Shown here: positions 12,301 to 63,905 of the stretch, one piece after another
How positions within the stretch are numbered: position 1 is the stretch's first letter
How the letters are laid out: every line of letters starts with the position of its first letter
Assembly: GCA_036555615.1 (NCBI GenBank)
Contig: DATBKZ010000034.1
Span: 84,246-148,245 of the forward strand
Length of the DNA stretch: 64,000 nucleotides
Reading direction: 5' to 3'
Origin: Burkholderiales bacterium
GTDB lineage: Bacteria > Pseudomonadota > Gammaproteobacteria > Burkholderiales > SG8-41
Notes under the pieces: generated by a model
What the model was told of the DNA's origin: nothing
Seen by the model: the letters and a program-made list of their open reading frames with translations, nothing else
The model's database searches: none
Program-made: the position numbers and the translations under genes

Positions 12301-12312
12301 CGGAGAACTGCC

Positions 12313-15704: not shown

Positions 15705-15738
15705 GTGCGGCTAGAATGAGGCCGAAGGGGAGAAGAGC

Positions 15739-19020: not shown

Positions 19021-19044
19021 ACAGCGAGCAAGGAGGAATACGAC

Positions 19045-19212: not shown

Positions 19213-19342
19213 CGGCCGCAGGCCGCGGCGGCAATTCCGCACGGCCGGCCTCCGCGGACGGACTGTCGCAGCGCCTGCGCGGGGTGCTGCCGCAGGCGAC
19301 CGTGACGACTCCATGCGACAGGAGCGGCTGGCGCGTTTCCCC

Positions 19343-44039: not shown

Positions 44040-44079
44040 GACACAGCAAGTTCGTTTACCATTGCGGAAGGAGACGCAG

Positions 44080-44778
44080 ATGCTGACGGTTCGAAAGGCG
44101 GAAGCGCGCGGCCACGCCAATCACGGCTGGCTCGACACCTGGCACACCTTTTCGTTTGCCGATTATTACGATTCGCGCGAGATGGGATTTGGCGCGCTGC
44201 GTGTCATCAACGACGACAAGGTCGAGCCGGGACAGGGCTTCGGCATGCACGGGCACCGCGACATGGAGATCATCACCTACGTGCTCGAGGGCGCGCTCGA
44301 GCACAAGGACAGCATGGGCAACGGCTCGATCATCCGGCCCGGCAACGTGCAGCGCATGAGCGCGGGCACTGGCGTGCGGCACAGCGAGTTCAATCCGTCG
44401 CGCGATGAGCGCGTGCACCTGCTGCAGATCTGGATCGAGCCGAAGATCACCGGCGTGCGGCCGAGCTACGAAGAAAAGCCGTTTGGGCCGGCGGACAAGA
44501 AGGGGAAGCTGCGCCTGATCGCCTCGCCCGATGGCCGGGATGGGTCTGTCACCATCCATCAGGACGCGCTCGTGTACGCCGCGCTGCTCGACGGCAAGGA
44601 CGCGGTTACGCACACGCTCGCGCCGGGACGGCGCGCCTACCTGCATGTCGCCCGCGGCGCTATCAAGGTGAACGGCGCGGCGCTCAAGGGTGGCGATGGT
44701 GCGAAGATCGAGAGCGAAACCAGGATCGAGCTGAGGGACGCGCGGGAAGCCGAAGTGCTGCTCTTCGACCTGCCGTAA
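44080..44778 (+). CDS. Pirin-family protein (YhhW-like, about 232 aa)
   Basis: ATG 44080 follows [31 protein letters not shown]...[19 protein letters not shown] carries the pirin metal-binding His residues. Confidence 0.9.
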
Positions 44779-44827
44779 CGGGCGCGCGACTGTTAACCGT
44801 CTCCATTACCAGTTACGCCTCATCATC

Positions 44828-45817
44828 ATGGGACATCTCGAGAACGGCGTCTGGCGCGAGGGGCGCGAAACGCGCACGGTGAACGGCGAGTTCATCCGCC
44901 GCGACAGCCAGTTCCGCGACCGCGTCACGGCGGACGGCTCGAGCGGCTACCCGGCCGACGCCGGCCGCTACCATCTATACGTCTCGACCGCGTGCCCGTG
45001 GGCGCATCGCACGCTGATTCTCCGCAAGCTCAAGCGGCTCGAGGACGTGATCTCGATCTCGATCGTGGCCCCCGTTGTCGCGAACGAGGGCTGGCCAATG
45101 AGCGCAGGGGACGGCTGCATTCCGGACACGGTGAACGGCTTTCACCATCTGCACCAGGTCTATTCGAAGGCGAAGCCCGACTACACCGGCCGCGTCACCG
45201 TGCCGGTGCTGTGGGACCGGGAAAAGGCCACGATCGTCAACAACGAGTCCTCCGAGATCATCCGGATGCTCAACAGCGAGTTCGAATCCTTCGCCGGGTC
45301 GCGCGACGACTACTATCCACGGCGGCTGCGCGCGGAGATCGACGCCGTCAACAAGATCGTCTACGAAAATATCAACAACGGCGTCTACCGCTGCGGTTTC
45401 GCGACGACGCAGGATGCCTACGAACAGGCATTCGACGCCTTATTCGGAGCGCTGGACGAGATGGAGGCGCGGCTCGATCGCTCGCGCTACCTCGTTGGCG
45501 ACCGGATCACGGAGGCGGACTGGCGGCTCTTCCCGACGCTGGTGCGCTTCGATGCTGTGTACGTCGGCCACTTCAAGTGCAACCTGCGGCGCATCGAGGA
45601 CTATCCCAATCTGTCAAATTACCTGCGCGATCTCTATCAAGTGCCGGGCATCGCGGAAACCGTCGACATGGATCACATCAAGCGCCACTATTACACGAGC
45701 CACCGCCACATCAATCCGACCGGGATCGTGCCGAAAGGGCCGGCGCTCGATTTCTCGGCGCCGCACGACCGCGCGCGCAGGTTCGAGCGCCGCGCGCGGC
45801 GCGCTGATACGCATTGA
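44828..45817 (+). CDS. yqjG: Xi-class glutathione transferase / glutathionyl-hydroquinone reductase
   Basis: RYHLYVSTACPWAHRTLILRKLK (CPWA active site) and typical YqjG/ECM4 length (329 aa). Confidence 0.9.
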   Translation: MGHLENGVWREGRETRTVNGEFIRRDSQFRDRVTADGSSGYPADAGRYHLYVSTACPWAHRTLILRKLKRLEDVISISIVAPVVANEGWPMSAGDGCIPDTVNGFHHLHQVYSKAKPDYTGRVTVPVLWDREKATIVNNESSEIIRMLNSEFESFAGSRDDYYPRRLRAEIDAVNKIVYENINNGVYRCGFATTQDAYEQAFDALFGALDEMEARLDRSRYLVGDRITEADWRLFPTLVRFDAVYVGHFKCNLRRIEDYPNLSNYLRDLYQVPGIAETVDMDHIKRHYYTSHRHINPTGIVPKGPALDFSAPHDRARRFERRARRADTH

Positions 45818-45845
45818 CGATCCGCGATCGCCGGTCACTGAATTC

Positions 45846-46628
45846 ATGAGCCGCCAGCCTGCCATATTCGTCTCCCACGGCTCGCCGACGCTGCCGCTCG
45901 AGAGCGGCCCTGCGGTCGATTTCCTGCGCGGGCTCGGCAGCGACCTCGGGCGGCCCGACGCCATACTGATCGCCTCGGCGCACTGGGACACGGAACGTCC
46001 GGCCGTCTCCACCGCGCAGGAGCCCGAGACCATCTATGACTTCTACGGATTCCCGCCGGAGCTCTATCGCCTGAGCTACCCCGCCCCGGGCGCCCCGCAC
46101 CTCGCGCATCGGGCCAGACAGCTTCTCGAGAAGAGCGGGTTCAAGACCGATCTCGTTCCGGCGCGCGGACTCGACCACGGGGCGTGGACGCCGCTCTTCC
46201 ACATGTATCCGAAGGCCGAAATTCCCGTCACGCAGCTCTCCATCCAATGGCAGGAAGGCCCGGCGCACCACGTGCGTCTGGGAGAAGCGCTGCGTCCGTT
46301 GCGTGACGACGGCGTGCTGATCTTCGCCTCCGGCGGCGCTACGCACAATTTGCGCGAGCTGCGGTATCACCGGGGCAATCCGGTGCCGCAGCCGTGGGTC
46401 GTGGAGTTCAACGAATGGCTGGCGGATGCCGTGCTGTCGGGGCGCCGCGATGACCTCGTCGGCTACCGGCAGAAGGCACCGCATGCGGCACGGAACCACC
46501 CCACCGACGAGCACCTCATTCCGCTTTTTGTCGCACTTGGCGCCGGCGATCCGCGCGTGCCACCCAAGCGCCTCCATACGAGCATCGCTTCGGGTGTCAT
46601 CAGCATGGACGCGTACCGCTTTGACTGA
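45846..46628 (+). CDS. ygiD: Class III extradiol dioxygenase, 4,5-DOPA-dioxygenase-like
   Basis: PAIFVSHGSP...SAHW...IYDFYGFP...LDHGAWTPL...HPTDEHLIPLFVALGA are LigB/YgiD family motifs. Confidence 0.85.
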   Translation: MSRQPAIFVSHGSPTLPLESGPAVDFLRGLGSDLGRPDAILIASAHWDTERPAVSTAQEPETIYDFYGFPPELYRLSYPAPGAPHLAHRARQLLEKSGFKTDLVPARGLDHGAWTPLFHMYPKAEIPVTQLSIQWQEGPAHHVRLGEALRPLRDDGVLIFASGGATHNLRELRYHRGNPVPQPWVVEFNEWLADAVLSGRRDDLVGYRQKAPHAARNHPTDEHLIPLFVALGAGDPRVPPKRLHTSIASGVISMDAYRFD

Positions 46629-46685
46629 GCCGGCAGCTGCCGGCCTTTCACCGTCGTCACGCCTTACCCGCGAAGCGCCTGACAG

Positions 46686-47624
46686 ATGGAACACATGACG
46701 GGGCTGCTGGCGGAGCACGGCCTGGCGCTCGTGTTTACCAACGTGCTGCTGGCGCAGGCGGGGGTGCCGCTCCCCGCCGTGCCGATTCTGGTCGTTGCCG
46801 GCGCGTTCGTCGCCCAGGGTCAGATCGCGCTCGCGCCGCTCATTCTCGTATCAGTGATCGCCTCGCTCATCGGCGATACGCTCTGGTATGCCGCCGGCCG
46901 GCGTCACGGCTATCGGGTTCTGCGCACGCTGTGCCGCGTGGCGATCGAGCCGGATTCGTGCGTCAAGCAGACCGAGAACATCTTCGAGCGCTGGGGTGTG
47001 TCGTCGCTGATGCTGGCCAAGTACGTCCCGGGCTTTTCCACGGTCGCGCCGCCGCTTGCAGGAGCCATGCGGCTCGCACTGCCGCGTTTCCTCGCTTATA
47101 GCGCCGTCGCCGCTTTGCTTTGGGCGGGCCTGCCGATCGTGCTCGGGGCAGTTTTCGAAATGGAGGTCGAGCGCGTCCTCGAGTGGCTCGCGGGCATGGG
47201 AACCGGCGCAGTAGCGATCATAGGGGCGGTCGTGCTGCTCTACATCGGCGTCAAGCTCGTGGAGCGCTATTTGCTGATCCGCTTCCTGCGCATGGTGCGG
47301 ATAGGCGCCGGGGAGCTGCGCGAGCTGATGGCGCGAGAGCCGCGGCCGGTCGTGCTCGACGTGCGCTCAGCCGTGGCGCGCAAGCTCGACCCGCGCCGCC
47401 TGCCTGGCGCGATCGCCGTGGATATCGATGCGCCGCAGGCGGCCCTCGCGGCGGTGCCTCCCGACCGCGATGTCGTCGTCTATTGCAGTTGACCGAACGA
47501 AGCGAGCGCGGCGCGTGTCGCCCGCCTGCTGATGGACCGGGGTTACCGGCGCGTTCGCCCGCTGGAAGGCGGATTGGAAGCCTGGGTCGAGGCCGGCGGC
47601 GAGCTGGACGCGCAGTCGTGGTAA
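46686..47624 (+). CDS. DedA-family membrane protein fused to a single-domain rhodanese, interrupted by an in-frame TGA (47490-47492) at the catalytic-Cys position. Either a selenocysteine codon or a nonsense mutation.
   Basis: The DedA part (46686-47300) is secure. The same frame reads ...[47 protein letters not shown]...-TAA (47622-47624). There is no start codon for an independent downstream ORF. GC3-rich codons continue after the TGA. Confidence 0.6.
47501..47530 (+). other. SECIS-like hairpin 9 nt downstream of the in-frame TGA
   Basis: Upper stem 47506-47513 / 47519-47525 (7 bp, bulged C 47509), apical loop CGUGU (47514-47518). Lower stem 47501-47504 / 47527-47530 includes one G-U pair. 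Folded by hand, not by a model. Confidence 0.3.
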
Positions 47625-47640
47625 ATTGAGTTGGAATCCA

Positions 47641-48558
47641 ATGAGCTGGACCCAGTCCGTCGAGCCGCTCTGCAGGACCTGCCCGGGCACGCCCGCGATC
47701 GAGATGGTCATCGAGGCGAGAACGCGCGATCTCGGCGGCTTCAGCGTCGGGCGGGTGCTGCCTTCCGCGCGGCGCAGGCTCGTCGGACCGTTCATCTTCT
47801 TCGATCACATGGGGCCGGTCGCATTTCCCCCGGGGCAGGGGATAGACGTCCGTCCACACCCCCACATCAATCTCGCCACGGTCACCTACCTGTTCGAGGG
47901 CGAGATCGTGCATCGCGACAGCCTCGGCTCGCTGCAGGCGATCCGGCCGGGAGCGATCAATTGGATGACGGCAGGAAAGGGCATCGTCCATTCCGAGCGG
48001 ACCGGCCCGGAACCGAGAACGGCGGGATCGCGGTTGCACGGCTTGCAGCTCTGGGTCGCACTGCCAAGAGCGCACGAGGAGATGGATCCCGACTTCCGGC
48101 ATTACCCCGCTGCATCGCTGCCGGAGTTCGAGCGGCGGGGCACACGGGTGCGGGTTCTGGCGGGAACCGCCTATGGCGCCGCATCGCCCGTGCGGACGCT
48201 GAGCCCGCTACTCTACGCCGAAGCGACGATACCGGCAGGAGGAGAATTGCCGCTGCCGGACGAGCACCGGGAACGGGCGGCATACGTCGTGGAAGGCGTG
48301 ATCCATTGCAGCGGGGAGCGCGTCGATCCATTGCGCATGGCCGTATTCGCGCCCGGCCCCGTTCCGCCGCTTCGGGCAGAGTCGCCCGCGCGCGTCATGC
48401 TCATCGGCGGCGCACCGCTCGACGGGGAGCGGCATATCTGGTGGAACTTCGTGTCGAGCTCGCGCAGCCGCATCGAGCAGGCCAAGCGTGACTGGAAGGA
48501 AGGCCGCTTCGCTCCGGTTCCGGGAGAAACCGAGTTCATTCCGCTCCCCGAAGCGTGA
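47641..48558 (+). CDS. Pirin-family protein (long, about 300 aa form)
   Basis: [10 protein letters not shown]...[12 protein letters not shown]...[23 protein letters not shown]...IVHSER pirin motifs. The start is ambiguous (TTG 47626, ATG 47641 or ATG 47704). Confidence 0.85.
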
Positions 48559-48658
48559 CTCCACGCTCGCATCCTGCAGCGACCCGATAAGCCGCTTTGG
48601 ACAAACGGGAGGTTTCGCGCCGCGCGGCCGGAACGCTTCCATTCCCTGAGGTGCTGCC

Positions 48659-50428
48659 ATGAACGGTGAGCAATTCCTGGTGCAGGCGACCGTGTTTCTC
48701 GCGGCGGCGGTGATCGGCGTGCCGCTCCTCAAGCGGCTCGGACTCTCCTCAGTGCTGGGCTACATCGTCGCGGGCGCGGCGATCGGCCCGTGGGGACTCG
48801 CGCTCGCCGGCGACGTCGAAGGCGTGCGCGCTTTCGCCGAGATCGGCATCGTGCTGCTGCTCTTCCTGATCGGGCTCGAAGTGCTGCCGGCGCGCCTGTG
48901 GGAGCTGCGCCGCGCGGTATTCGGGTTCGGCACCGCGCAGGTGGTCGCGACGGGGGCCGTTCTCGGAATCGCCGCGTGGGCGCTCGGTGTTGCGCCAGCT
49001 GCTGCCGCCGTCGTCGGCTTCGGGTTGGCGCTCTCGTCGACGGCGATAGGCCTGCAGATCCTGATCGAAAAGAAGCAGCTCTCGACCCCGCAGGGACGCG
49101 CCGGGTTCGCCGTCCTGCTGTTCCAGGACCTCGCTGTGATCCCGCTGCTGGCAGTGCTGCCGGCGCTAATGGAGGGCCAAGCCGGAGTGGTGCATGCCGC
49201 GGGCGGCTTTTCGCCGCTGGTAACGGTCCTGCTGCTTGCCGGGGTCGTGGCGGCAGGGCGCTACCTGCTGCGGCCGTACTTCCGGATGCTGGCGGAGGCC
49301 GGCAGCCGGGAAGTCTTCTCCGCCGGCGCTCTGCTGGTGGTACTCGCGGTCGGCGTCTTCATGCACCAGCTCGGTATCTCCATGGCGCTCGGCGCGTTCG
49401 TCGCGGGCATGCTGCTCGCCGGCTCCGAGTATCGCCACGAGATCGAGGCCGACATCGAGCCGTTCAAGGGCCTGCTACTGGGGCTTTTCTTCATGGCGGT
49501 TGGGATGTCCGTCAACTTCGCGTTGATCGCCGCCGAGCCGCTGAAGATCGCCGGCCTGGTCATCGCGCTGGTCGCGATCAAGGCGGCCGTGGTCTTCGCG
49601 CTCGCTCGCGCCTTCGGGGAAAGGGCGCCCGCGGCGTACGCGCTGGCGGTGGTGCTGTCACAGGGCGGTGAGTTCGCGTTCGTGCTGTTCTCCGTGGCGG
49701 CCGGCGGAAGGCTGCTGCCCGCGGCGCTGGCTGATCTGCTGGTCGCGGTCGTCACCATCAGCATGCTGACCACCCCGTTCCTGGTGAACCTGCTCCGCTG
49801 TCTGCCGCAGCGCGCGGAAGCGGCGGCAAGCGGAGGCGCGGCACCGCCGGCCGAGGACAACCCGGTGATCATCGCCGGCTTCGGCCGCTTCGGCCAGATC
49901 GTCGGGCGCATCCTCGCCACGCGCGGCATTCCCTTCACCGCGCTCGATGCCGACTCGGAGCAGCTTGATTTCGTGACCCGGTTCGGCGAGAAGGCCTATT
50001 TCGGAGACGCATCGCGCCTCGACCTGCTGCGTGCGGCACGGGCCGACATGGCCGCGATCCTGGTGATCGCGATCGACGACATCGAGGCCTCCATGAAGTG
50101 CGCCGAGATTGCGAAGCAGCATTTCCCGCAGTTGAAGATCTTCGCGCGCGCCCGCAACCGGCTGCATGCCTACCGCCTGCTCGACCTCGGCGTCTCGCGC
50201 GTGTGGCGCGAGACCTTTCATTCGAGCGCCGACCTGGCCGGCCGCGTGCTGACGGAGTTGGGGCTGCCCGAGTCAACCGCGGAGGAGACGGTGCGCATTT
50301 TCACGCTGCACGACGAGCGGCTGCTGCGGCGCGCGGCTGCCCACCATGCGGACATGCCCAAGCTGATCGAGATCGCGCGGGCTGGCCGCGCCGAGTTGCG
50401 GAGCCTGTTCGAGCAGGACCGGCGATGA
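48659..50428 (+). CDS. Glutathione-gated K+ efflux system protein, KefB/KefC type (CPA2 membrane domain plus RCK/TrkA-N)
   Basis: 589 aa. Kef-like TM domain and VIIAGFGRFGQIVGRIL Rossmann-type RCK domain. Confidence 0.9.
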   Translation: MNGEQFLVQATVFLAAAVIGVPLLKRLGLSSVLGYIVAGAAIGPWGLALAGDVEGVRAFAEIGIVLLLFLIGLEVLPARLWELRRAVFGFGTAQVVATGAVLGIAAWALGVAPAAAAVVGFGLALSSTAIGLQILIEKKQLSTPQGRAGFAVLLFQDLAVIPLLAVLPALMEGQAGVVHAAGGFSPLVTVLLLAGVVAAGRYLLRPYFRMLAEAGSREVFSAGALLVVLAVGVFMHQLGISMALGAFVAGMLLAGSEYRHEIEADIEPFKGLLLGLFFMAVGMSVNFALIAAEPLKIAGLVIALVAIKAAVVFALARAFGERAPAAYALAVVLSQGGEFAFVLFSVAAGGRLLPAALADLLVAVVTISMLTTPFLVNLLRCLPQRAEAAASGGAAPPAEDNPVIIAGFGRFGQIVGRILATRGIPFTALDADSEQLDFVTRFGEKAYFGDASRLDLLRAARADMAAILVIAIDDIEASMKCAEIAKQHFPQLKIFARARNRLHAYRLLDLGVSRVWRETFHSSADLAGRVLTELGLPESTAEETVRIFTLHDERLLRRAAAHHADMPKLIEIARAGRAELRSLFEQDRR

Positions 50429-50507
50429 TGTTGCCTGCCGCCGGCGCGCGGCAAAATCATATATATTTGGCGCTTTTCCGGGACTCACTCCAGAGGAGAA
50501 CGACAAC

Positions 50508-51113
50508 ATGCTTGAACGACCCGCGCCGACAAACATTGCCATTCACGATCTGTTCAAGCGCCGCTGGAGCCCGCGCGCGTTCGACCCGAACCGGCCCGTC
50601 ACGCGCGAGCAGCTGAAGGTGCTGCTCGAGGCCGGGCGCTGGGCCCCTTCCTGCAATGGCGACGAGCCGTGGCGCTACCTGATCTGGGACAAGAGCCGCG
50701 ACCCCCAGGGCTGGCAAAAGGCCTACGACTGCCTGAACGAGAACAACAAGAAATGGGTGAAGAACGTGCCGCTCCTGATGCTCTCCTGCGCGGGCAACGC
50801 TTTCGAAGCCACCGGAAAGCCCAACCGCTGGACGCAACACGATACCGGCGCGGCCAGCGTCTCGATGGCGCTGCAGGCGGTCGCGATGGGGCTGATCATC
50901 CACCAGATGGGCGGGTGGGACGTCGAGAAGGCGCGCGCGGCGTTCGCGATCCCGCCGGAATACACGCCGATGGCGATGATCGCGGTCGGCTACCAGGCCA
51001 GCCCGGATATACTGGACGAGGAAACGAAAGCCAAGGAAATGCGGCCCCGCACGCGCAAGCCGATCGCGGATCGGTTCTTCGAGGGCGGATGGGGCAAGCC
51101 GGTCGCCGTCTAA
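50508..51113 (+). CDS. Nitroreductase-family protein
   Basis: LFKRRWSPRAF...LLEAGRWAPSCNGDEPWRY is the typical nitroreductase N-terminal motif. GAGGAG lies upstream. Confidence 0.85.
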   Translation: MLERPAPTNIAIHDLFKRRWSPRAFDPNRPVTREQLKVLLEAGRWAPSCNGDEPWRYLIWDKSRDPQGWQKAYDCLNENNKKWVKNVPLLMLSCAGNAFEATGKPNRWTQHDTGAASVSMALQAVAMGLIIHQMGGWDVEKARAAFAIPPEYTPMAMIAVGYQASPDILDEETKAKEMRPRTRKPIADRFFEGGWGKPVAV

Positions 51114-51209
51114 GCCGCCGCGCGAGCCGCGGCTCGCGGCTCGTGAACGGCCCCAGGGATGGGACCCGCGAGGGCCCTTCCTGCCGCGACCCGCGCCCGC
51201 GAGTCACGG

Positions 51210-51863
51210 ATGTTTGAGGACTTCGTCCACGCGATCTTCTGGCCGTTCTTTCTCGGCGGGCTGGTGGGCCTCATGTCCATCAGCAATCCGCTGTCGAAGA
51301 TCCCGCTGTTCGTCTCGCTCACCGAGGACATGTCGCAGCGCGAGCGCGCGGCCGTCGCGCGCAAGGCCTGCTTCTACGGGTTTGCTTTGCTGGTGTTCAC
51401 GCTGTTCTTCGGCGTGTTCATCCTTGAGGCGTTCGGCATCTCGTACGGGGCCCTGCGCGTGGCGGGCGGGCTCACCGTCGCGCTGCTTGGCTACCGCATG
51501 CTGTTCGGCTACGGTTACGTCGGACTGACGGCGAAAGGGGGCCGGGGCAACATCGCCGTATTCCCATTGGCGCTGCCGGCCATCAGCGGCCCGGGCGCGA
51601 TCGCGGTGGTGATCGGCATATCGACCGAGATTGCCGAGCTCAGGACGGCGGCGCTCAAGGCGATCGCGTACGGCGCGACCGTCGCGAGCATCCTCCTCAC
51701 CTGCGTCGCGATCTGGCTCACGTTCCGGTCGGCCCGCATGATCTCGCGGGCCATGGGGCCGGATGCGATGGAGGCGATCACCCGCATCATGGGCTTCCTG
51801 CTGGTGTGCATCGGCGTGCAGTTCGTCGCCTCCGGGGTGCGGAGTTTCGTCGCCGGACAATAA
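51210..51863 (+). CDS. MarC-family (UPF0056/NAAT) integral membrane protein
   Basis: 217 aa, 6 TM. LMSISNPLSKIPLFVSL and FPLALPAISGPGAIA are MarC-family motifs. Confidence 0.85.
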   Translation: MFEDFVHAIFWPFFLGGLVGLMSISNPLSKIPLFVSLTEDMSQRERAAVARKACFYGFALLVFTLFFGVFILEAFGISYGALRVAGGLTVALLGYRMLFGYGYVGLTAKGGRGNIAVFPLALPAISGPGAIAVVIGISTEIAELRTAALKAIAYGATVASILLTCVAIWLTFRSARMISRAMGPDAMEAITRIMGFLLVCIGVQFVASGVRSFVAGQ

Positions 51864-55851: not shown

Positions 55852-55908
55852 CGCCGATGGTGCGCCCAGGGCCGGGGACGCGCACCGCGCGCATCATCAG
55901 GTGGCCTT

Positions 55909-57357
55909 CTATCGTTGGGCCCCGGACGGGCCTTGCGCGATCGGCGCCGCCTCGAAACCCTGCCAGCCGCCGCCCAGCGCCTTGACCAGGTCCGCGACCG
56001 CGGCGCGCTGCACGCGCAGCGCGTCGCTGCGGTTCAGCTCCGCCTGCAGGAGGTTGCGCTCGGAGTCGAGCACCTCGAGCAGGGACAGCAGCCCGTTCTC
56101 GTAGCGGATGCGGGAAAGCCGCAGCGCCTCCTCCAGCGCGACGGTGCGCGCGCTCTCGGCTTCGAACGATTCGCGCGCCTTCACCTGCGTGTAGAGCGCC
56201 TGCCGCACCTCGCGGAACGCTTCCTGCAGCGTCTTCTGGTAGCGCGCGACCGCCTGGCGCTCGCGGGCCTTGACGGCGTCGACCTCGGCGAACAGCCGTC
56301 CGCCCTGGAAGATCGGCTGCGCGAGCGCGAATCCCAGCGACCAGATCGCCGCCGGCCCGGAGAAGAGATCGCCCAGCGCGGTGCTCTCGCTGCCCAGATA
56401 GCCCGTGAGCCCGATGCGCGGAAAGAGCGCTGCGCGCGCTTCGGAGATGCGGGCGTTGTTCGCAATCAGCACCTGCTCCGCGCTCGCGACGTCGGGGCGG
56501 CGCAACAGCAGGTCGGATGGCAGGCCCTCGGGCACTACCGCGGCGGCCGGCTCGCCTTGGCCGCCGCGGCGCTCGACCGCGCCTTCCATGATGGCGCGGG
56601 GACTGCGGCCGAGCAGCACGGCGAGCGCGAGCTCCTGCGCGGTGCGATTCGCTTCGAGCGCCGGCAGCTGCGCGCGCGCGGCGGCGACTTCCGCCTCGAG
56701 CTGCCGCAGCGCGAATTCGTTGATGAGGCCGGCCCGGATCCGCACTCTCTGCAGGTCGAGCCCCTCGGCGCGCAGGGCAAGGGAGCGGCGGGTCGCTTCC
56801 ACCTGGGCATCCAACGCCACCAGCGCGAAATAGGCGCGAACCACCTCGGTGGCCAGCGTGATGCGGACCGTCTCGCGGTCGGCCTCGCTTGCCAGCAGCT
56901 CGGCGCGTGCGGCCCTGCTTGCGCTTCTCAGCCGTCCCCACAGGTCCACTTCGTACGCGACATTCAGCTTCGCGCGGTAGCTGTTGCTCTCCACGGCGTT
57001 GGAGGGGATCGGTACCGGCGCGCGCTCGGAGAAATGGAACCGGTCGCGCTCGAACGTCGCATCCACCGTGGGCATGCGCTGCGAGTCTGCGATATCCGAC
57101 AGCGCGCGCGCCTCGTCCACCCGCGCGGTGGCGAGCGCGAGGTCCTGGTTCGAGGCGAGCGCCTCTTCAACCAGCCGGTCGAGCGCGGGATCGCCGAACA
57201 TGGTCCACCAGCGCTCGGCGGGGGCCTTGGTACCCTGCGGCGGAGGTTCTTGCCACCGGATGGGAAGTTCCGCGGTCGGCCGCTCATAGGCAGGTCCGAG
57301 CGTGCAGCCTGCGATGAGCGCGGCAGCGGCAGCAAGCGTGATTCTGCTAAGAGGCAT
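55909..57357 (-). CDS. RND efflux outer-membrane lipoprotein, NodT/OprM family
   Basis: Lipobox LIAGCTLGPAY. 482 aa with duplicated OEP repeats. Its start overlaps the RND permease gene by 11 nt. Confidence 0.9.
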   Translation of the reverse strand: MPLSRITLAAAAALIAGCTLGPAYERPTAELPIRWQEPPPQGTKAPAERWWTMFGDPALDRLVEEALASNQDLALATARVDEARALSDIADSQRMPTVDATFERDRFHFSERAPVPIPSNAVESNSYRAKLNVAYEVDLWGRLRSASRAARAELLASEADRETVRITLATEVVRAYFALVALDAQVEATRRSLALRAEGLDLQRVRIRAGLINEFALRQLEAEVAAARAQLPALEANRTAQELALAVLLGRSPRAIMEGAVERRGGQGEPAAAVVPEGLPSDLLLRRPDVASAEQVLIANNARISEARAALFPRIGLTGYLGSESTALGDLFSGPAAIWSLGFALAQPIFQGGRLFAEVDAVKARERQAVARYQKTLQEAFREVRQALYTQVKARESFEAESARTVALEEALRLSRIRYENGLLSLLEVLDSERNLLQAELNRSDALRVQRAAVADLVKALGGGWQGFEAAPIAQGPSGAQR

Positions 57358-60300
57358 CCGTACCTCCCTTCTCGACCGCGTGGTGGTGCGCGGCGCGGGG
57401 CGAACGCAGTCCCGCTTCGCGATGATGCTTCGCTTCCTCTTCGATCTCGGTGGTCGAGCGCGGCTCGGACAGCCTGCGGTCCATGATCAGCTTGAAGAAC
57501 CACGGAATGAAGAAGATGGCGAGGAAGGTTGCGGCGAGCATGCCACCCATCACACCGGTGCCCGCCGAGTGGCGCGCGCCTGCGCCTGCGCCGGTCGAGA
57601 ACGCGAGCGGCATCACGCCGAGGATAAAAGCGAGCGAGGTCATCAGGATAGGACGGAACCGCAGCCTGGCGGCCTCGACGGCCGCCGCAGCGGTCGAAAG
57701 GCCTTCATGCTGCTTCAGGACCGCATACTCGACGATCAGGATCGCGTTCTTCGCCGCCAGGCCGAGCAATGTGACCAGCCCGATCTGGAAGTAGACGTCA
57801 TTCGAGAGCCGCGCGATCCCGGCGAGCGGCGAGAGCAGCCCCTGCAGCCAGGGCACGCCCTGGGCAAGGTAATACGGCATCGGCAGCAGGTTGTTGATCC
57901 AGATCGCCGCGAGCGCGCCGAACGTGCCGAAGGGCAGCGCAAGCAACACCGCCAGCGGCAGCGACCACTTGTCGTATTGGGCGGCCAGGATCAGGAACAC
58001 CATCAGCGCCGCGAGACCGAGTGCGAGAATCGAGGTGCCGCCCGAGCGCTTTTCCTGGAACGAGGCGCCTCCCCAGTCGAAGCTGAATTCGGGGGGCAGC
58101 GTCTCGCGGGCGATTTTCTCCATGCGCTCGATCGCCTGGCCGGAGCTGAATCCGTTTCGCGTCTGCCCGAAGATCTTCACGGCAGGCAGGTTGTTGAAGC
58201 GGTCGAGCGTGTCCGGCCCGGAGGAATACCTGACCTTTGCCAGCGATGCGAGCGGGATCATGCCCCCGCGCTCGGAGCGCACGTAGACCGCCCCGACGTC
58301 GTCGGGCCGGTTGCGATAGGCGGGCTCCGCGGACATCAGGACCTGCCAGGTGCGGCCGTACTTGTTGAAGTCGTTGACGTAGAAGGTGCCGAGCGTTGCG
58401 GCGAGCGCGTCGTAGATCTCGTCCACCTTGACGCCAAGCGACTTCGCCTTCTCACGGTCGGTCTCGACGTAGAGCTGGGGCACGTTCGCGCGCCACAGCG
58501 TGTTGACCTGCCCGAACATCGGGTCCTTGGCGACCGCGGCGAGCAGCCGCTGCGTCGCCTCGGCCAGGCTCCGCGCCCCGCCGTTGCCGCGATTCTGGAT
58601 GTAGAACTCGAAGCCACCCGCGTTGCCCAGCCCGAAGATGGGCGGCGGGCCGAAAGCGAGCACCAGCGCCTCCCGGATGTGCGCGGTCTTCATGAAGAAC
58701 TCGCCGACCAGCTGCCCGGTGGCGACTTTGCGATCGTCCCAGTGCTTCTGGGTAACGAATATCGTCGCCGCGCTGTTGCGGAAGCTGCCGCCGAGGAAAT
58801 CGAAGCCGGTGAAGGCCACGGCGTCCTCGTTGGCGGGGTTCGACTTGATGATGCGCACCACCTCGTTCACGACCTTGTCGGTGCGCTCCAGCGTCGCGCC
58901 GTCGGGCAGGAACACCGCTGCGATGTAATAGCCCTGGTCTTCGTCGGGCACGAGCGAGCCCGGTGTCGTGCGCCACAGGCCGACGGCGATGGCGACCATC
59001 CCGATGAAAAGCGCGGCCGCGATCCCCCCGCGCCGCAGCATCCACGCGACGCCATCCACGTAGCGGCCCGTCATGCGGTGAAACCAGCCGTTGAACCAGC
59101 GGAAGAAGCGTCCCGGCTGCCTGTGCTCGCGCTTCAATATCAGCACGCACAGGCTGGGCGTGAGGGTCAGCGCGACGATGCCCGAGAGCACCACCGCGAT
59201 CGAGATCGTCACCGCGAACTGGCGGTAGAGCTCGCCCGTCAATCCTCCGAGGAAGGCGATGGGCACGAACACGGCGGTGAGCGTCAGCACGATGGCGATG
59301 ATCGGGCTCGTGACTTCCCGCATCGCCTTGATCGCCGCCTCGCGCGCGTTCAGGTGCTCCTCTTGCATGATGCGCTCGACGTTCTCGAGCACGACAATGG
59401 CGTCGTCGACCACGATGCCGATCGCGAGCACCATGCCGAAGAGCGTCAGCGTGTTGATCGAATAGCCGAGGATGACCAGCCCCGCGAAGGTGCCGATGAG
59501 CGAGACCGGCACCGCGGCGAACGGGATCAGGGTCGCGCGCCAGTTCTGCAGGAACAGAAACACCACCAGGAACACCAGCGCCATCGCCTCCGCGAGCGTC
59601 TTGACCACCTCCCGGATCGAGACTTCCACGAAGCGTGTGGTGTCGTAGACCACCGAGTGCTCGAGGCCCGGCGGGAAGCGCTGCGACAGCCCGTCCATCG
59701 CCTGCTTCACGCGCTCCGCGGTTGCGATCGCGTTGGCGTTCGGCTGGAGGAATATGCCGACCAGCGTCGCCGCCCTGCCGTTCACGCGGCCAACGAATTC
59801 GTAGTCCTTCGATCCCAGCTCGACGCGGGCCACGTCCTTCAGCCTCAGTACCGAGCCGTCGCCGTTCGCCCGTACCACGATATCCTCGAATTCCGAGGGC
59901 TCCGAGAGCCGCCCCTGCGTCGTGATGGTGTAGACGAGCTCCTGGGCGCCGCGGGTCGGCGACTGCCCGATCTTCCCGGCCGCGAACTGGGCGTTCTGCT
60001 CGTTCAGCGCGCGCAGCAGGTCCGAAGGCGTGAGCTTGAGCTGCGCGAGCCGGTCCGGCCGCACCCAGACGCGCATCGCATAGTCCTTGGCTCCGAATAT
60101 CTGCACGTTGGTCGTGCCGGGTATGCGCTTCAGCTGATCGAGGACGTTCAGCGTGACGTAGTTCGAGATGAAGAGGTCGTCGCGGCTGCCGTCAGGGGAG
60201 GTGAACGCGATCACCTGGAGAAACGAGGAGGAGCCTTTCTCGACCGTCACGCCCTGGCGGCGGACCTCTTCGGGCAGCCGCGGCTCGACCTGCTTCACGC

Positions 60301-60631
60301 GGTTGTTGACGTTCAGCGCCGCGGTGTCCACGTCGGCGCCGATCTCGAAGGTCACGTGGATCTCGACGACGCCGTTCGAGCCCGAGGTCGAGCTCATGTA
60401 GAGCATGTTCTCGACGCCGTTGATCTGGTTCTCGAGCGGCGCGGCCACCGTCTGCTCGATCACCTGGGCGGAAGCGCCGGGGTAGACGGCGCGCACCGTG
60501 ACGACGGGCGGCGCGATCTCGGGGTATTGGGAGATCGGCAGGATGCGCATCCCGGCGAGCCCCGCGATCACGACAAAGATCGAGAGCACGGCCGCGAAGA
60601 TCGGCCGGTCGATGAAGAAGCGGGAGATCAT
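57347..60631 (-). CDS. RND multidrug efflux permease (AcrB/MexB-like, HAE-1)
   Basis: 1094 aa. MISRFFIDRPIFAAVLSIFVVIAGL...QYPEIAPPVVTVRAVYPGASAQ is a near-canonical AcrB N-terminus. Confidence 0.95.
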   Translation of the reverse strand: MISRFFIDRPIFAAVLSIFVVIAGLAGMRILPISQYPEIAPPVVTVRAVYPGASAQVIEQTVAAPLENQINGVENMLYMSSTSGSNGVVEIHVTFEIGADVDTAALNVNNRVKQVEPRLPEEVRRQGVTVEKGSSSFLQVIAFTSPDGSRDDLFISNYVTLNVLDQLKRIPGTTNVQIFGAKDYAMRVWVRPDRLAQLKLTPSDLLRALNEQNAQFAAGKIGQSPTRGAQELVYTITTQGRLSEPSEFEDIVVRANGDGSVLRLKDVARVELGSKDYEFVGRVNGRAATLVGIFLQPNANAIATAERVKQAMDGLSQRFPPGLEHSVVYDTTRFVEVSIREVVKTLAEAMALVFLVVFLFLQNWRATLIPFAAVPVSLIGTFAGLVILGYSINTLTLFGMVLAIGIVVDDAIVVLENVERIMQEEHLNAREAAIKAMREVTSPIIAIVLTLTAVFVPIAFLGGLTGELYRQFAVTISIAVVLSGIVALTLTPSLCVLILKREHRQPGRFFRWFNGWFHRMTGRYVDGVAWMLRRGGIAAALFIGMVAIAVGLWRTTPGSLVPDEDQGYYIAAVFLPDGATLERTDKVVNEVVRIIKSNPANEDAVAFTGFDFLGGSFRNSAATIFVTQKHWDDRKVATGQLVGEFFMKTAHIREALVLAFGPPPIFGLGNAGGFEFYIQNRGNGGARSLAEATQRLLAAVAKDPMFGQVNTLWRANVPQLYVETDREKAKSLGVKVDEIYDALAATLGTFYVNDFNKYGRTWQVLMSAEPAYRNRPDDVGAVYVRSERGGMIPLASLAKVRYSSGPDTLDRFNNLPAVKIFGQTRNGFSSGQAIERMEKIARETLPPEFSFDWGGASFQEKRSGGTSILALGLAALMVFLILAAQYDKWSLPLAVLLALPFGTFGALAAIWINNLLPMPYYLAQGVPWLQGLLSPLAGIARLSNDVYFQIGLVTLLGLAAKNAILIVEYAVLKQHEGLSTAAAAVEAARLRFRPILMTSLAFILGVMPLAFSTGAGAGARHSAGTGVMGGMLAATFLAIFFIPWFFKLIMDRRLSEPRSTTEIEEEAKHHREAGLRSPRAAHHHAVEKGGTDAS

Positions 60632-60641
60632 CGCGCGCTCA

Positions 60642-61850
60642 CTACTTGGCCGCCGCCGGCTGCGCAGAGCTGGCGGGAGGGTTGCCGGGTTCCCCCCCAG
60701 GGGCAGCGGCGTCGGCGACTTTCACCGGCGCTCCCGGGCCGATCTTGAGCACGCCGTCGACGATCACCTTGTCGCCCGGGCGCAGCCCCGAGTAGATGAT
60801 CCAGCCGGTGCCGTTCCAGTCGCCGACTTCGAGCGGGCGCGGCTCGGCCTTGCTCTCGGCGTTGACGACGTAGGCGAACTTGCCCTGGGGGCCCTCCAGC
60901 ACCGCGCGCTGGGGAAGCACGACCGCGGCGGGGCGGACGGCCCCCTCCAGTGCGACCCGGACGAACTCTCCGGCGCGGAGCATCCCTCCTGGATTGGGCA
61001 CCTCGGCGCGCGCCTCGGTGGTGCCGGTCTGCGCGTTGACCCGGACGTCGGTGAAGCTCAGGACGCCGGCGCGCGGATAAGCGCCCCCGTCGGCAAGCTT
61101 GACCGTCACCTTGAAGCGGCCGTTCTCGGGCAATGTCAGCCGTCCCGCGTCGACGTCGCGGCGGATCGCGAGGCGCTCGCGGTCGGGAATGCCGAAGATC
61201 ACGTACATCGGATCGGTCTGGGTCACGGTCGTGAGCAAGACGCTCGGCCCGGACACGAGCGTGCCCTCGGAGACCACGGCGCGGCTCGCGATGCCGGTGA
61301 TGGGCGATTCGACGCGCGTGTACTCGAGGTTCAGCCGGGCCTCGTTGACGCGGGCGCGAGCGCTCTGCACCTCGGCCTCTGCGATCTGCTCGGCGGAAAC
61401 GGCGTCATCGAGCTCCTTCTGGCTCACGGCCTTCGACTTGAACACCGGTCGCAGCCGCGCCGCCTCCCGCCTCGCCTGGGCAAGACGCGCTTCCGCGACC
61501 CCCAGATCGGCCTCGGCGCGGGCGAGGGCGACCCGGAACGGCTCGGGATCGATAGTGAAGAGCGACTGGCCTTTCTTCACCAGGCTGCCTTCCTGGAAGT
61601 TGCGCTTGAGCAGGATGCCCGAGACGCGCGCGCGCACTTCGACCTCGCGGTAGCCCGCGGTCTGGGCGACGTACTCGTAGGTTACGGGCACGACCTTGGT
61701 CGCCACGGTCGTGACGCTGACCACCGGCGGCGGGAAACCCATGCCGTGATTCCCGTCGCTTGGCTGGCATCCCGCGACAAGCAGCGCGAGGACGACGGAC
61801 GGCGCCGCCCGATGGGCCGGCAAGGGCCGGGACTCGATGAAATTCCTCAT
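60642..61850 (-). CDS. RND efflux periplasmic adaptor lipoprotein (AcrA/MexA-like)
   Basis: ATG 61850 chosen. Lipobox LLVAGCQ. The YTRVESPITGIASRAVVSEG motif is typical of AcrA-family MFPs. Confidence 0.9.
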   Translation of the reverse strand: MRNFIESRPLPAHRAAPSVVLALLVAGCQPSDGNHGMGFPPPVVSVTTVATKVVPVTYEYVAQTAGYREVEVRARVSGILLKRNFQEGSLVKKGQSLFTIDPEPFRVALARAEADLGVAEARLAQARREAARLRPVFKSKAVSQKELDDAVSAEQIAEAEVQSARARVNEARLNLEYTRVESPITGIASRAVVSEGTLVSGPSVLLTTVTQTDPMYVIFGIPDRERLAIRRDVDAGRLTLPENGRFKVTVKLADGGAYPRAGVLSFTDVRVNAQTGTTEARAEVPNPGGMLRAGEFVRVALEGAVRPAAVVLPQRAVLEGPQGKFAYVVNAESKAEPRPLEVGDWNGTGWIIYSGLRPGDKVIVDGVLKIGPGAPVKVADAAAPGGEPGNPPASSAQPAAAK

Positions 61851-61918
61851 GGTTGCTTGACTCCCCGAAACCAGCGCTGCATGCGGCACGGTGGTGCGGC
61901 GTTGCAAAGGATCGCCAG

Positions 61919-61946
61919 TTTACATACAATCGCGAATGTATGTAAA
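61919..61946. promoter_or_regulatory. AcrR-type operator: 28-bp inverted repeat TTTACATACA-ATCGCGAA-TGTATGTAAA
   Basis: Perfect 10-bp arms plus an inner TCGCGA palindrome, in the divergent pump/tetR intergenic region. The core TACATACA...AATGTATGTA closely matches the E. coli acrR/acrAB operator as I remember it (TACATACATTTGTGAATGTATGTA). Confidence 0.6.
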
Positions 61947-61949
61947 GAG

Positions 61950-61971
61950 GCGATGTGGAATTCCACATCGC
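61950..61971. promoter_or_regulatory. Second, perfect 22-bp palindrome GCGATGTGGAATTCCACATCGC
   Basis: Perfect dyad centred on GAATTC, 4 bp after the AcrR-type operator and 19 bp before the tetR GTG. It could be a second regulator site or a 5'-UTR hairpin. Confidence 0.4.
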
Positions 61972-61989
61972 GCGAAGGGGTGCTACACC

Positions 61990-62670
61990 GTGGTGAGACG
62001 TACCAAGAACGAAGCAGAAGAGACCCGCAGCCGGATACTTGACGCGGCGGAGCGGGTATTCAGCGAGCGCGGCGTCTCGCGCACGTCACTGGAGGACATC
62101 GCGCAGGCCGCCGGCGTCACGCGCGGCGCCATCTACTGGCATTTCAAGGACAAGCGGGATCTCTTCGCGGCGATGGTGGATCGCGTGACGCTGCCGATGG
62201 AGGCGATGGTGGCCGCCTCGAGCGACGCGTCAGTCGCGGACCCGATCGCCTCGCTGCGGGCGAGTGCCGTCAGTGCGCTGAAGCGCACCGCGACCGACCA
62301 GCAGGTCCAGCGCGTGTTCGACGTGGTCACGCACAAGTGCGAGTACCTCGGCGAGATGGCCGGGCTCAACAACCGGATCAGCGCGGTGCAGAAGGGCTGC
62401 GTGGATCGCGCCGAGCAGGCCATCCGCAACGCGATCAGGCGCGGCCAGCTACCGGCCGGCGTGAACCCGCGGCTCGCGGCCATCGGGCTCGATTCACTGC
62501 TCTACGGATTGATCTCCAGCTGGCTTGCCAATCCCGCCTACCTTCCGCTCGAGCGGCACGCCGAGGCGATGATCGATCTCTTTCTCGGGGGCCTCAAGGC
62601 GCGCGGCGCGCACCGGGCGCCGCGGGTGCGGGCTCCTCGCGCCCGCCGCGTCGCCGGACGCGTGCGCTGA
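61990..62670 (+). CDS. TetR/AcrR-family transcriptional repressor of the divergent RND pump
   Basis: GTG 61990 gives (M)VRRTKNEAEETRSRILDAAERVFSERGVSRTSLEDIAQAAGVTRGAIYWHFKDK, a classic AcrR/TtgR-like HTH. It is divergent from the efflux operon. Confidence 0.9.
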   Translation: MVRRTKNEAEETRSRILDAAERVFSERGVSRTSLEDIAQAAGVTRGAIYWHFKDKRDLFAAMVDRVTLPMEAMVAASSDASVADPIASLRASAVSALKRTATDQQVQRVFDVVTHKCEYLGEMAGLNNRISAVQKGCVDRAEQAIRNAIRRGQLPAGVNPRLAAIGLDSLLYGLISSWLANPAYLPLERHAEAMIDLFLGGLKARGAHRAPRVRAPRARRVAGRVR

Positions 62671-62687
62671 GGCCACGCGGCGGCTGG

Positions 62688-62873
62688 TCAGAGCCTGCGG
62701 AACGGTCGATCGCCGCCGCGCAATAGCATCGCCGCTCGGCTGTAGTGGACCAGCACATGGCCGATCCTCCGCAGCACGGCACGCGCGAGCTTGTGCGCTT
62801 CCAGCAACCACCCTGGGGTGGCAGCTTCGGCATGCTTACCCGGGGCTCGAGTAATAATCGCTTCCATCTTCAT
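62688..62873 (-). CDS. Hypothetical 59-61 aa ORF divergent from the LysR gene, no family recognised
   Basis: AAGGAG lies upstream (7 nt before the second ATG at 62867). Codon GC3 bias is weaker than in neighbouring genes and I recognise no motif. It may not be a real gene. Confidence 0.2.
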   Translation of the reverse strand: MKMEAIITRAPGKHAEAATPGWLLEAHKLARAVLRRIGHVLVHYSRAAMLLRGGDRPFRRL

Positions 62874-62941
62874 GCTCCTTTTCGTTCGTTGGGGCCGGTC
62901 TCGCCTGGCCCGATGCAGGCATGATATGTTGTTTCCTGATA

Positions 62942-62969
62942 TTTACAATCCACGTATGAGTAATATAAT
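62942..62969 (+). promoter_or_regulatory. Near-consensus sigma-70 promoter TTTACA-N16-TATAAT ending 9 nt before the LysR ATG
   Basis: Hexamers at 62942-62947 and 62964-62969 in the only AT-rich stretch of the region. There is no Shine-Dalgarno between the -10 and ATG 62979. Confidence 0.4.
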
Positions 62970-62978
62970 TGTTCTCAT

Positions 62979-63905
62979 ATGGAAACAATCACAGCAAGCC
63001 TTATGGGAATGGCGGTCTTCGCTAAGGTTGCGGAGACAAAGAGTTTTTCCGCGGCTGCCGAGCGATTGGGAATCTCGAAGTCCGCGGTCAGCAAGCAAGT
63101 TACCCGTCTTGAACGGTCACTTAACGCGCGGCTCATCAACCGCACCACGCGGCGTCTGAGCCTGACCGAGATTGGCACCGCTTTCTACGAACACTGCGCC
63201 CGCATGCTGACGGAGGCGGAGGCCGCGGAGTCCGTGGTGTCACGGCTGCGCGCAGCCCCGCGGGGGGTATTGAGACTCACCACGCCGGCGGCGTATGGCC
63301 ACCTGCAAATCGCCCCGGCGATACCCGAACTGCTTGCCCGCTATCCGGAGATGGCGGTGCAGATCGCCATGAACGATCGGCCGGTGGATCTCGCCGAGGA
63401 GGGGTTCGACGTGGCGATCCGCTTGACATACGACCCGCCGCCCAGCGTCGTCGCGCGCAAGCTCACGACCGTGAGCTGGATGACCTGTGCTGCGCCGGCC
63501 TACCTCGAGCGGCACGGCGCCCCGCGCGCGCCCCAGGACCTCCGGGGGCGCAATTGCCTGTTCTATTCGTTCCTCGAATCGTCCATCGAGTGGCGTTTCC
63601 GATCGCCGCAGGGAGAGACGAAAGTGCGCGTCGCGGGGAATTTCACGGCGAACAACTCCGAGGCGATTCGCGAAGCCGCGCTCGCGGGCCTGGGGATCGC
63701 CCTGCTGCCCAGCTTTATCGTTGCCGGGGACCTGCGCGAAAACCGTCTGCAGGTCGTGCTGGGCGGCTACGAGGTCGAGGGCGCCGTCGCCAACGATGTC
63801 TACGCGCTCTATCTGCCGACGCGCTACGTGTCGCCCAAGGTGCGCGCGTTTGTGGACTTCTTCGTCGAGCGGTTCGGGTCGAAACCCGATGCGGCTCGGG
63901 CGTGA
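62979..63905 (+). CDS. LysR-family transcriptional regulator
   Basis: MAVFAKVAETKSFSAAAERLGISKSAVSKQVTRLERSLNARLINRTTRRLSLTEIG is the LysR wHTH. The C-terminal substrate-binding domain is present. 308 aa. Confidence 0.9.
   Translation: METITASLMGMAVFAKVAETKSFSAAAERLGISKSAVSKQVTRLERSLNARLINRTTRRLSLTEIGTAFYEHCARMLTEAEAAESVVSRLRAAPRGVLRLTTPAAYGHLQIAPAIPELLARYPEMAVQIAMNDRPVDLAEEGFDVAIRLTYDPPPSVVARKLTTVSWMTCAAPAYLERHGAPRAPQDLRGRNCLFYSFLESSIEWRFRSPQGETKVRVAGNFTANNSEAIREAALAGLGIALLPSFIVAGDLRENRLQVVLGGYEVEGAVANDVYALYLPTRYVSPKVRAFVDFFVERFGSKPDAARA

Follow-up and report, generated by a model that had tools for sequence, protein, structure and literature searches.

An in-frame UGA in the rhodanese domain of a DedA family membrane protein from Burkholderiales: a candidate selenocysteine codon

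A stretch of 64,000 nucleotides from a Burkholderiales bacterium (GenBank assembly GCA_036555615.1, contig DATBKZ010000034.1, positions 84,246 to 148,245 of the forward strand; hereafter the window, with all features below on its forward strand and numbered from its first letter) contains a gene for a DedA/VTT membrane protein whose predicted product breaks off inside a second, rhodanese domain. The open reading frame (ORF; 46686..47492, 268 amino acids) ends at TGA 47490-47492, and the same frame then stays open for 43 codons, to TAA 47622-47624. An earlier note, made from the sequence alone, had taken these codons for the missing half of the rhodanese and the TGA for a selenocysteine (Sec) codon. 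Does this TGA end the protein, or is it translated, and if so, as which residue? Based on comparison with homologous loci, the UGA at 47490-92 is very probably recoded as Sec, in a 312-residue DedA-rhodanese selenoprotein.

The in-frame TGA and the frame that follows it

Translation of the frame and a Pfam search of the 312-residue protein, run with the stop read as Cys, agree with the architecture given in the earlier note, of a DedA ORF that halts at the TGA and a continuation that completes a rhodanese. The coding part that precedes the putative recoded codon (46686..47489, codons 1-268) comprises the DedA/VTT membrane domain (46773..47150, residues 30-155; PF09335 at 53 bits, cut-off 33.9), followed by a transmembrane helix that serves as linker and by the first half of the rhodanese, and ends in VVVYC267-S268. 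The rhodanese domain (47310..47591, residues 209-302; PF00581, 45.6 bits against a cut-off of 22.2) spans the TGA, and the match is complete only with read-through, the truncated ORF being without the second half of the domain. The in-frame UGA (47490..47492), proposed as Sec codon 269, belongs to a Y-C-S-U-P-N-E (CxU) motif, and the coding part after it (47493..47624, codons 270-312) includes the segment EGGLEAW and ends with the true stop, TAA 47622-47624. The GC content at third codon positions (GC3) is 0.84 in the 43 codons past the TGA, equal to that of the upstream ORF, in a window of 67% GC, in agreement with the coding-type bias described earlier. The downstream part has one in-frame ATG (Met283, at 47532), and no other ATG or GTG. 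From this ATG, gene callers predict an orphan ORF of 30 residues (47532-47624, equal to L020 10847-10939), which is the rhodanese tail, and contigs of the Joint Genome Institute (JGI) likewise have an orphan mini-gene of 30-32 residues after a 268-residue 'DedA' gene. The orphan 30-residue ORF is a symptom of the missed Sec codon.

The TGA is not peculiar to this contig. Among the best 120 clusters found in a protein search with the read-through sequence (66-97% identity), 116 are 268 or 265 residues long and end exactly at VYC[S/N], with identities down to 74%. The remaining four are full length (316-323 residues) and read YC[S/N]CPNE[A/V]SAARVA, in agreement with the C-x-C-P-N-E sequence given for related fusions in the earlier note. 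DNA was fetched for 19 loci from genome assemblies and 70 from metagenomes, and the codon after YC-x was tabulated. It is TGA in all 66 loci with 57-100% protein identity, and in none of them TAA or TAG, while 18 loci with 39-49% identity have TGC or TGT in the same column. Cys codons also occur in three forms nested among the Sec forms at 66-80% identity, P0002 (L098), P0004 (L101, GCA_041598315.1) and P0107 (L102), which from their sequences appear to be natural Sec-to-Cys revertants. The named hosts of the TGA form are Burkholderiales or Betaproteobacteria metagenome-assembled genomes (MAGs), besides two labelled 'Streptomycetaceae'; where distant Cys forms have a named host, it is a member of the Steroidobacteraceae or one further gammaproteobacterium. 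A 268-residue product of identical sequence is predicted from contigs spread over 31 blocks of the protein collection, and six such contigs from six different JGI samples were fetched, with TGA in all six. The TGA is furthermore present in 16 MAGs from different studies, and on an apparently complete contig of 4,019,858 bp (ctg4075642_17x_c, ENA ERZ28493315; gene at 1109-1915).

The sequence beyond the TGA evolves as translated sequence. In every locus the frame remains open past this codon, encodes the conserved RVRPL.GGL.AW part and runs to natural stops at variable positions. Proportions of synonymous (pS) and nonsynonymous (pN) differences, and the ratio of nonsynonymous to synonymous divergence (dN/dS), were computed on about 50 distinct Sec-type sequences. 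Codons +12..+35 past the TGA have a pS of 0.506, a pN of 0.131 and a dN/dS of about 0.17, compared with 0.481, 0.186 and 0.28 for the 200 codons upstream of it (range of dN/dS upstream, 0.28-0.32). Purifying selection is at least as strong downstream as upstream, at like synonymous divergence. The lack of frameshifts and stops, the dN/dS of about 0.17 and a normal level of synonymous diversity together show that the sequence past the TGA is translated.

The immediate context of the TGA is also conserved. The preceding codon is AGT in 46 of 46 Ser-containing Sec-type sequences, and a C invariably follows, which gives the same UGA-C as in E. coli fdhF. The immediate codon context seems to be under a constraint of its own, besides that on the hairpin described below. 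UGA-C is a weak context for termination by release factor 2. In the window itself (47487-47493), AGT is a rare codon for a genome of 67% GC.

Three side observations concern individual loci of this comparison. The two 'uncultured Streptomycetaceae' MAGs, L004 (CAZOQY010000127.1) and L005 (CAYYZZ010000231.1), carry a locus that is 76-77% identical to the betaproteobacterial gene, with the same TGA and the same invariant block, and are probably mis-binned contigs or mislabelled bins. A metagenome contig, L094, has TGACCAATG in place of TGACCCAATG at 2045-2052; the loss of 1 nt from the run of C that follows the TGA is most likely a homopolymer read error and not a real frameshift allele. This contig aligns at only 39% identity, with a match that breaks off before the stop (at query residue 252), perhaps owing to further frame errors. 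The three nested Cys forms differ in their neighbourhoods as well, namely Mla-type ATP-binding cassette (ABC) genes together with an FGE-sulfatase; a POR domain protein; and DoxX.

In the protein, the TGA falls in the rhodanese active-site loop, C267-S-U269-P-N-E-A-S. The distance from it to the G of the GY motif is 17 residues, as the earlier note had stated, and E. coli GlpE, read from the genome, has the same spacing between Cys65 and Gly82. That the stop occupies the position of the catalytic Cys itself is plausible, with evidence on both sides. Residue U269 is placed on the catalytic Cys by the GlpE spacing and by gap-free alignments, both single-sequence and profile, to 6mxv (in each of its domains) and to domain 2 of 1yt8, the solved rhodaneses with the best scores. 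Cys267 takes this place, with a 2-residue insertion later, in a BLASTP alignment to E. coli GlpE and in profile alignments to NoxA-3 (6pfz) and Alr3790. An AlphaFold2 model of the Cys form P0002, which is 80% identical, has a strand at 263-266, a loop at 267-272 with a predicted local distance difference test (pLDDT) score below 50, and a helix at 273-284, and tentatively favours Cys267 as the canonical residue, with U269 two residues into the loop. The confidence of this model is moderate (mean pLDDT 71). Its DedA part is all-helical and has no structural match in the PDB by Foldseek; the same Foldseek search aligned single-domain rhodaneses at TM-scores up to 0.8, and GlpE (1gmx) at 0.67. 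Under either register, the putative Sec is located within the active-site loop, beside an invariant Cys.

The RNA element downstream of the UGA

Five codons past the TGA begins a block that is invariant at the nucleotide level, AGC GCG GCG CGT GTC GCC CGC (47505..47525, codons +5..+11). All seven of its codons are four- to six-fold degenerate, and at each position the 50 unique Sec-type sequences use one codon only; fixation of 7/7 codons in the block compares with 0/24 among other conserved codons of like degeneracy (Fisher p = 3.8e-7). The pS of the block is 0.006, against about 0.5 in both flanks. This invariance is tied to the TGA. In the Cys clade, two to four codons are used at the five block positions that keep the same residue, and in each of the three apparent revertants the block has acquired one or two synonymous changes (for P0002/L098, P0004/L101 and P0107/L102: CGC>CGG; GCG>GCC and GCC>GCT; GTC>GTT). 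The invariant 20-mer has no second copy in about 600 kb of related DNA, which rules out a dispersed repeat as its explanation.

The block can fold into a minihelix that resembles a Sec insertion sequence (SECIS; 47506-47525), with the order GCG / bulged C / GGCG / loop CGUGU / CGCC / CGC. The minihelix starts 13 nt past the UGA, and its apical loop CGUGU (47514-47518) starts 21 nt past it. A longer hairpin (47501..47530), with a calculated minimum free energy (MFE) of -14.4 kcal/mol, adds the lower stem AGCG/UGCU. It was this longer hairpin that the earlier note had proposed as a SECIS, to be checked for conservation in TGA-containing orthologues. The hairpin exists, with the bulged upper stem and the CGUGU loop at 21 nt from the UGA, and its upper minihelix is invariant; the lower stem is conserved only in part. 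In 32 distinct sequences, the two outer pairs of the lower stem are kept via wobble in 32/32, and the inner pairs are broken in 8 and 16 sequences, with no compensatory change. The constraint is confined to the upper minihelix, 47506-47525.

As for geometry, the published description of bacterial SECIS elements (bSECIS; PMC13188914, Fig. 2 legend) specifies a loop of 3-9 nt, an upper stem of 4-16 bp, a UGA-to-loop distance of 16-37 nt and an MFE of at most -7.5 kcal/mol, with a G at position 1 or 2 of the loop and, as a rule, G or U after it. The hairpin falls within all these limits, with a loop of 5 nt, a bulged 7-bp stem, G at loop position 2 followed by U, a distance of 21 nt and an MFE of -14.4, and the assignment of bacterial SECIS geometry in the earlier note holds.

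The minihelix of E. coli fdhF, folded from the genome (UGA-C, 11 nt, 3 bp, bulged U, 3 bp, loop GGUC), is likewise downstream of a UGA-C within the coding region, and shares the 3-bp lower part, the single pyrimidine bulge in the 5' strand and a short loop that contains G-U. It starts 11 nt past the UGA compared with 13 nt here, the upper stem is one base pair longer in the present element, and there is no sequence similarity between the two; the loops are GGUC, a tetraloop, and CGUGU, with G-U at positions 2-3 in both. In the E. coli SECIS minihelix, G23, U24 and U17 have known roles. Binding of SelB to the element described here is predicted from this likeness, and the case for its function is best made on the invariance linked to the TGA, not on thermodynamics.

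The locus combines several of the features by which selenoproteins are normally recognized, namely a conserved UGA, aligned Cys homologues, conservation on both sides of the UGA and a hairpin of bSECIS type. With a dN/dS of about 0.17 in the downstream part and an invariant block linked to the TGA, the earlier proposal of a candidate selenoprotein with a SECIS just downstream of the stop is upheld.

Recoding weighed against its alternatives

Several observations count against the reading of the UGA as a Sec codon, or against parts of it. The genes selA, selB and selD and tRNA-Sec were not found by TBLASTN with E. coli SelA, SelB and SelD and by ARAGORN, run on the window and on all fetched loci (about 600 kb); the negative is uninformative, since sel genes normally lie elsewhere in the genome. 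No sel genes are present within 10 kb of the gene on the 4.0-Mb contig and a 327-kb contig, the 64-kb window has no tRNA genes by ARAGORN, and the Pfam annotation of the rest of the window contains no selenium-related genes. The stability of the hairpin does not differ significantly from that of shuffles of the GC-rich region (z = 0.42); stability alone is therefore no evidence and was dropped from the argument. Covariation is absent in the 32 distinct sequences, with no pair changed on both sides, because the upper stem is invariant, and shuffled sequences perform equally well. No Rfam family matches the element, or any part of the window, at gathering thresholds, and permissive E-values on 47440-47640 gave chance hits only. 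The minihelix furthermore has two alternative registers, with the pentaloop CGUGU or a triloop UGU. In the protein, the alignment register of the active site is ambiguous, and either U269 or Cys267 may be the canonical residue. With regard to function, which rests on neighbourhood and analogy, the subclade to which the window belongs has a pirin gene in the place where many relatives have DoxX.

A general reassignment of the codon does not apply here. TGA is the commonest ordinary stop in the window, where it ends 35 of 60 ORFs with high GC3, and therefore an alternative genetic code with TGA as a sense codon was rejected. A different proposal accepts both the recoding and a functional RNA element but has a standard residue inserted, either Cys via a SelB-dependent tRNA(Sec)-like species, or Trp, Cys or Arg by near-cognate read-through that the hairpin would stimulate. 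It draws on the fact that the comparative evidence speaks for recoding and for an RNA element, not for the identity of the inserted residue, on the failure to find Sec machinery in the window and in about 600 kb of related DNA, and on the apparent origin of the hosts, soil or groundwater Burkholderiales, given that aerobes rarely keep selenoproteins (PMC13188914). Such an insertion is improbable nonetheless. The column is Cys in all homologues without TGA, and lies in the active-site loop of a rhodanese, as is typical of a Sec/Cys pair; among curated families, the nearest is one of known selenoproteins, with U at the same motif position (see below); and the element has the geometry of a minihelix that binds SelB. 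Moreover, TGC is only one mutation away and has been taken by three lineages, yet TGA is kept in 66 loci, and the recoded residue would therefore be advantageous. It is from this Sec/Cys pattern that we infer Sec at position 269, with delivery that would depend on SelB.

The gene callers take the other side, that the TGA is a genuine stop, which would leave a 268-residue DedA protein ('VTT domain-containing protein') with a vestigial half-rhodanese, followed by a remnant or by a 30-residue peptide from ATG 47532. The frequent use of TGA as a stop in the window agrees with this, but a remnant would gain frameshifts, stops and nonsynonymous changes, whereas the frame is kept in 66 loci at a dN/dS of about 0.17. 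A separate peptide fares no better, as codons +1..+13, which precede ATG 47532, are conserved like the rest. The codon is furthermore never TAA or TAG, the invariant block decays only where TGA has become TGC or TGT, half of a rhodanese fold (a strand and loop, cut before the helix) is not a stable domain, and the next gene is spaced from the extended stop and not from the TGA. Taken together, a genuine stop is very unlikely. An error in sequencing or assembly, or a nonsense allele restricted to one strain, hardly deserves credence. The stop codon is the only blemish within the domain that would call for it, and the same TGA is found with an identical protein in at least six independent JGI metagenomes, in 16 MAGs and in 116 clusters down to 74% identity; the presence of the TGA in independent assemblies therefore excludes a read or assembly error and a private nonsense allele. 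The earlier note had named such an allele, and also close relatives with TGC and no conserved hairpin, as outcomes that would speak against Sec. Neither is what the data show, with TGA in 66/66 of the relatives and a block that decays only in Cys forms; orthologues with TGC or TGT amount to the 18 distant and three nested loci.

Related families, gene neighbourhood and possible role

Selenoproteins of the rhodanese type are established, and five forms have been listed (PMC13188914), which agrees with the earlier statement that rhodanese-like proteins are among the reported prokaryotic selenoprotein families. Of the NCBIfam models, the read-through protein matches NF041203 best (rhodanese_LYCAU, 'rhodanese-related (seleno)protein'; 67.7 bits, E = 7e-19), with residues 204-303 aligned to positions 21-119 of the 126 in the profile. 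This family is rhodanese form 3 with the motif CxU (PMC13188914). Membership requires the curated cut-off of 115 bits, and 67.7 bits falls well short of it. Both have a hydrophobic residue followed by Y-C-x-U, with Sec two residues past the Cys (VYCSU here, LYCAU there), as compared via the profile, but members of NF041203 are free-standing proteins of about 126 residues, whereas the rhodanese in question is the C-terminal third of a 312-residue DedA/VTT membrane protein. A Sec-rhodanese as such is not new, a CxU family being already curated as NF041203.

A precedent for a Sec-rhodanese joined to a membrane domain is TsoB, the 'rhodanese/DsbD fusion-like selenoprotein' (NF045694; rhodanese form 5, PMC13188914). 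In TsoB, the partner is DsbD-like and there are two Sec residues in a UxxxxU motif, compared with a DedA/VTT partner and one UGA in a CxU motif here, and the NCBIfam scan of the read-through protein gave no match to NF045694 at E <= 0.01. Closest in architecture are Cys-type DedA-rhodanese fusions, annotated by JGI as 'membrane protein DedA with SNARE-associated domain/rhodanese-related sulfurtransferase', which have the same two domains and a loop Y-C-x-C-P-N-E-A-[ST]-A-A. They are 39-49% identical to the window protein in the gammaproteobacterial loci, and 66-80% in the three nested Cys forms. Unlike the Sec clade, they have a Cys codon in the TGA column, no invariant nucleotide block and no adjacent DoxX gene (see below for counts).

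The DedA half matches only generic models. It belongs to the VTT domain (53 bits against 33.9), and scores far below the cut-offs of the NCBIfam equivalogs for E. coli DedA (PRK10847) and the undecaprenyl-phosphate transporter UptA (53 against 236, 48.6 against 250 and 43.7 against 300 bits). NCBIfam has no model for a DedA-rhodanese fusion, the selenoprotein table of PMC13188914 contains no entry for DedA, VTT, SNARE or PF09335, and full-text literature searches found no description of a DedA/VTT selenoprotein. Because the fusion is absent from these three sources, we regard it as a known kind of selenoprotein domain in a new architecture and a new lineage. The earlier remark that a Sec-rhodanese fused to DedA would be unusual is in line with this, there being no counterpart in NCBIfam or PMC13188914.

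In the window, the gene is surrounded (44062-51863) by genes for two pirins, a glutathione S-transferase (GST) of the Xi class with a CPWA motif (GST_N_2), a LigB-type dioxygenase, a KefB-type K+ efflux protein, a nitroreductase and MarC. This region, like the corresponding parts of L104 and L106, is a conserved set of genes related to redox, quinone and electrophile stress. In relatives, a DoxX membrane-protein gene starts 10-35 nt past the extended stop in 24 of the 42 Sec-clade loci with enough flanking sequence, and in none of 15 Cys-clade loci. A gene for a CDGSH/4Fe-4S protein (CDGSH/Fer4_19) comes next in several loci. Upstream genes in relatives include LigB in 18 loci, and a WrbA-like protein and a Xi-class GST in a few loci each. 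The neighbourhood suggests a role in quinone, electrophile or thiol stress, analogous to that of the mycobacterial DoxX complex described next.

Known systems offer two points of comparison. In Mycobacterium tuberculosis, a membrane-associated oxidoreductase complex of DoxX, SseA and SodA has been described (Nambi et al. 2015, as referred to in PMC7907618 and PMC6930017). In the accounts given there, a sulfurtransferase of the rhodanese type is coupled to DoxX for thiol homeostasis, and here a rhodanese gene lies beside DoxX in 24/42 loci. The differences are that SseA is a soluble two-domain Cys enzyme, that no SodA is linked to the genes considered here, and that the window locus is without DoxX. 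A DedA protein has also been linked to selenite uptake in Ralstonia metallidurans, according to a mention in PMC11422209; any bearing of that link on the present gene would be suggestive.

The following course of events can be proposed. The UGA at 47490-92 would be decoded co-translationally as Sec, with a SelB-type factor that carries Sec-tRNA(Sec) recruited by the minihelix 47506-47525. The resulting 312-residue protein, predicted to reside in the inner membrane, would consist of an N-terminal DedA/VTT domain, a transmembrane helix with an Arg-rich linker and a single-domain rhodanese that presumably faces the cytoplasm. The selenol could act as a nucleophile that carries a persulfide or perselenide, or that takes part in thiol exchange, and Cys267 may resolve Sec269 via a selenenylsulfide. 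The whole would then form a membrane-tethered module for sulfur/selenium transfer or thiol oxidoreduction.

A more far-reaching and rather doubtful proposal is that this would be the first DedA/VTT (TMEM41/VMP1-related) selenoprotein, with the Sec-rhodanese as the catalytic head of a membrane machine that often includes DoxX and a CDGSH Fe-S protein. Such a machine might link the quinone pool with persulfide/perselenide or thiol-selenol chemistry; alternatively, it might pass on sulfur or selenium species, at the membrane or through it. If true, the proposal would provide a mechanistic basis for the old link between DedA and selenite uptake in a Burkholderiales bacterium, and would imply that use of Sec is common in Burkholderiales of soil and groundwater. 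DedA/VTT proteins are abundant and few have an assigned function. A Sec head with a conserved DoxX partner would offer a chemically tractable entry point, since a clear phenotype is to be expected from mutation of residue 269. Outside anaerobes, selenoproteins are held to be rare (PMC13188914), and the candidate described here is widespread in Burkholderiales of soil, sediment and groundwater. The three putative Sec-to-Cys revertants, in which the SECIS block is just starting to decay, would constitute a natural experiment in SECIS evolution. As for annotation, more than 100 clusters now named 'VTT domain-containing protein' or 'DedA' (268 residues), together with the orphan 30-residue ORFs, would represent one mis-called gene of 312 residues, and a family model with U at position 269 would mend this.

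Other candidates for read-through, consisting of an ORF, a TGA and a second ORF, were sought in all fetched DNA, and gave only adjacent genes with starts of their own. In the window, an amidase gene (within 17683-19215) ends at TGA 19018-19020 and is followed by an in-frame stretch of high GC3; the stretch has an ATG of its own (MIFRILAAVIAAALLL) and is a distinct ORF for a small membrane protein, and a second case of read-through was rejected. The parts of the window farther from the DedA-rhodanese gene (1-36100 and 55900-63905) are ordinary chromosome of the Burkholderiales type. The first of them has a Na+/H+ exchanger, an NfeD/SPFH pair (3485-5783), Mrp-type antiporter genes (6897-14245), a tripartite ATP-independent periplasmic (TRAP) transporter (14468-17678) and a PAS-GAF-GGDEF-EAL protein (20418-23339), and the two together also encode CBS and MoCF_biosynth-domain (molybdopterin-binding) proteins, a phasin, a HIT protein, a TctC ('Bug') receptor, a patatin, a GluRS-like (GluQRS-type) protein of 305 residues, two resistance-nodulation-division (RND) efflux systems, and TetR and LysR regulators.

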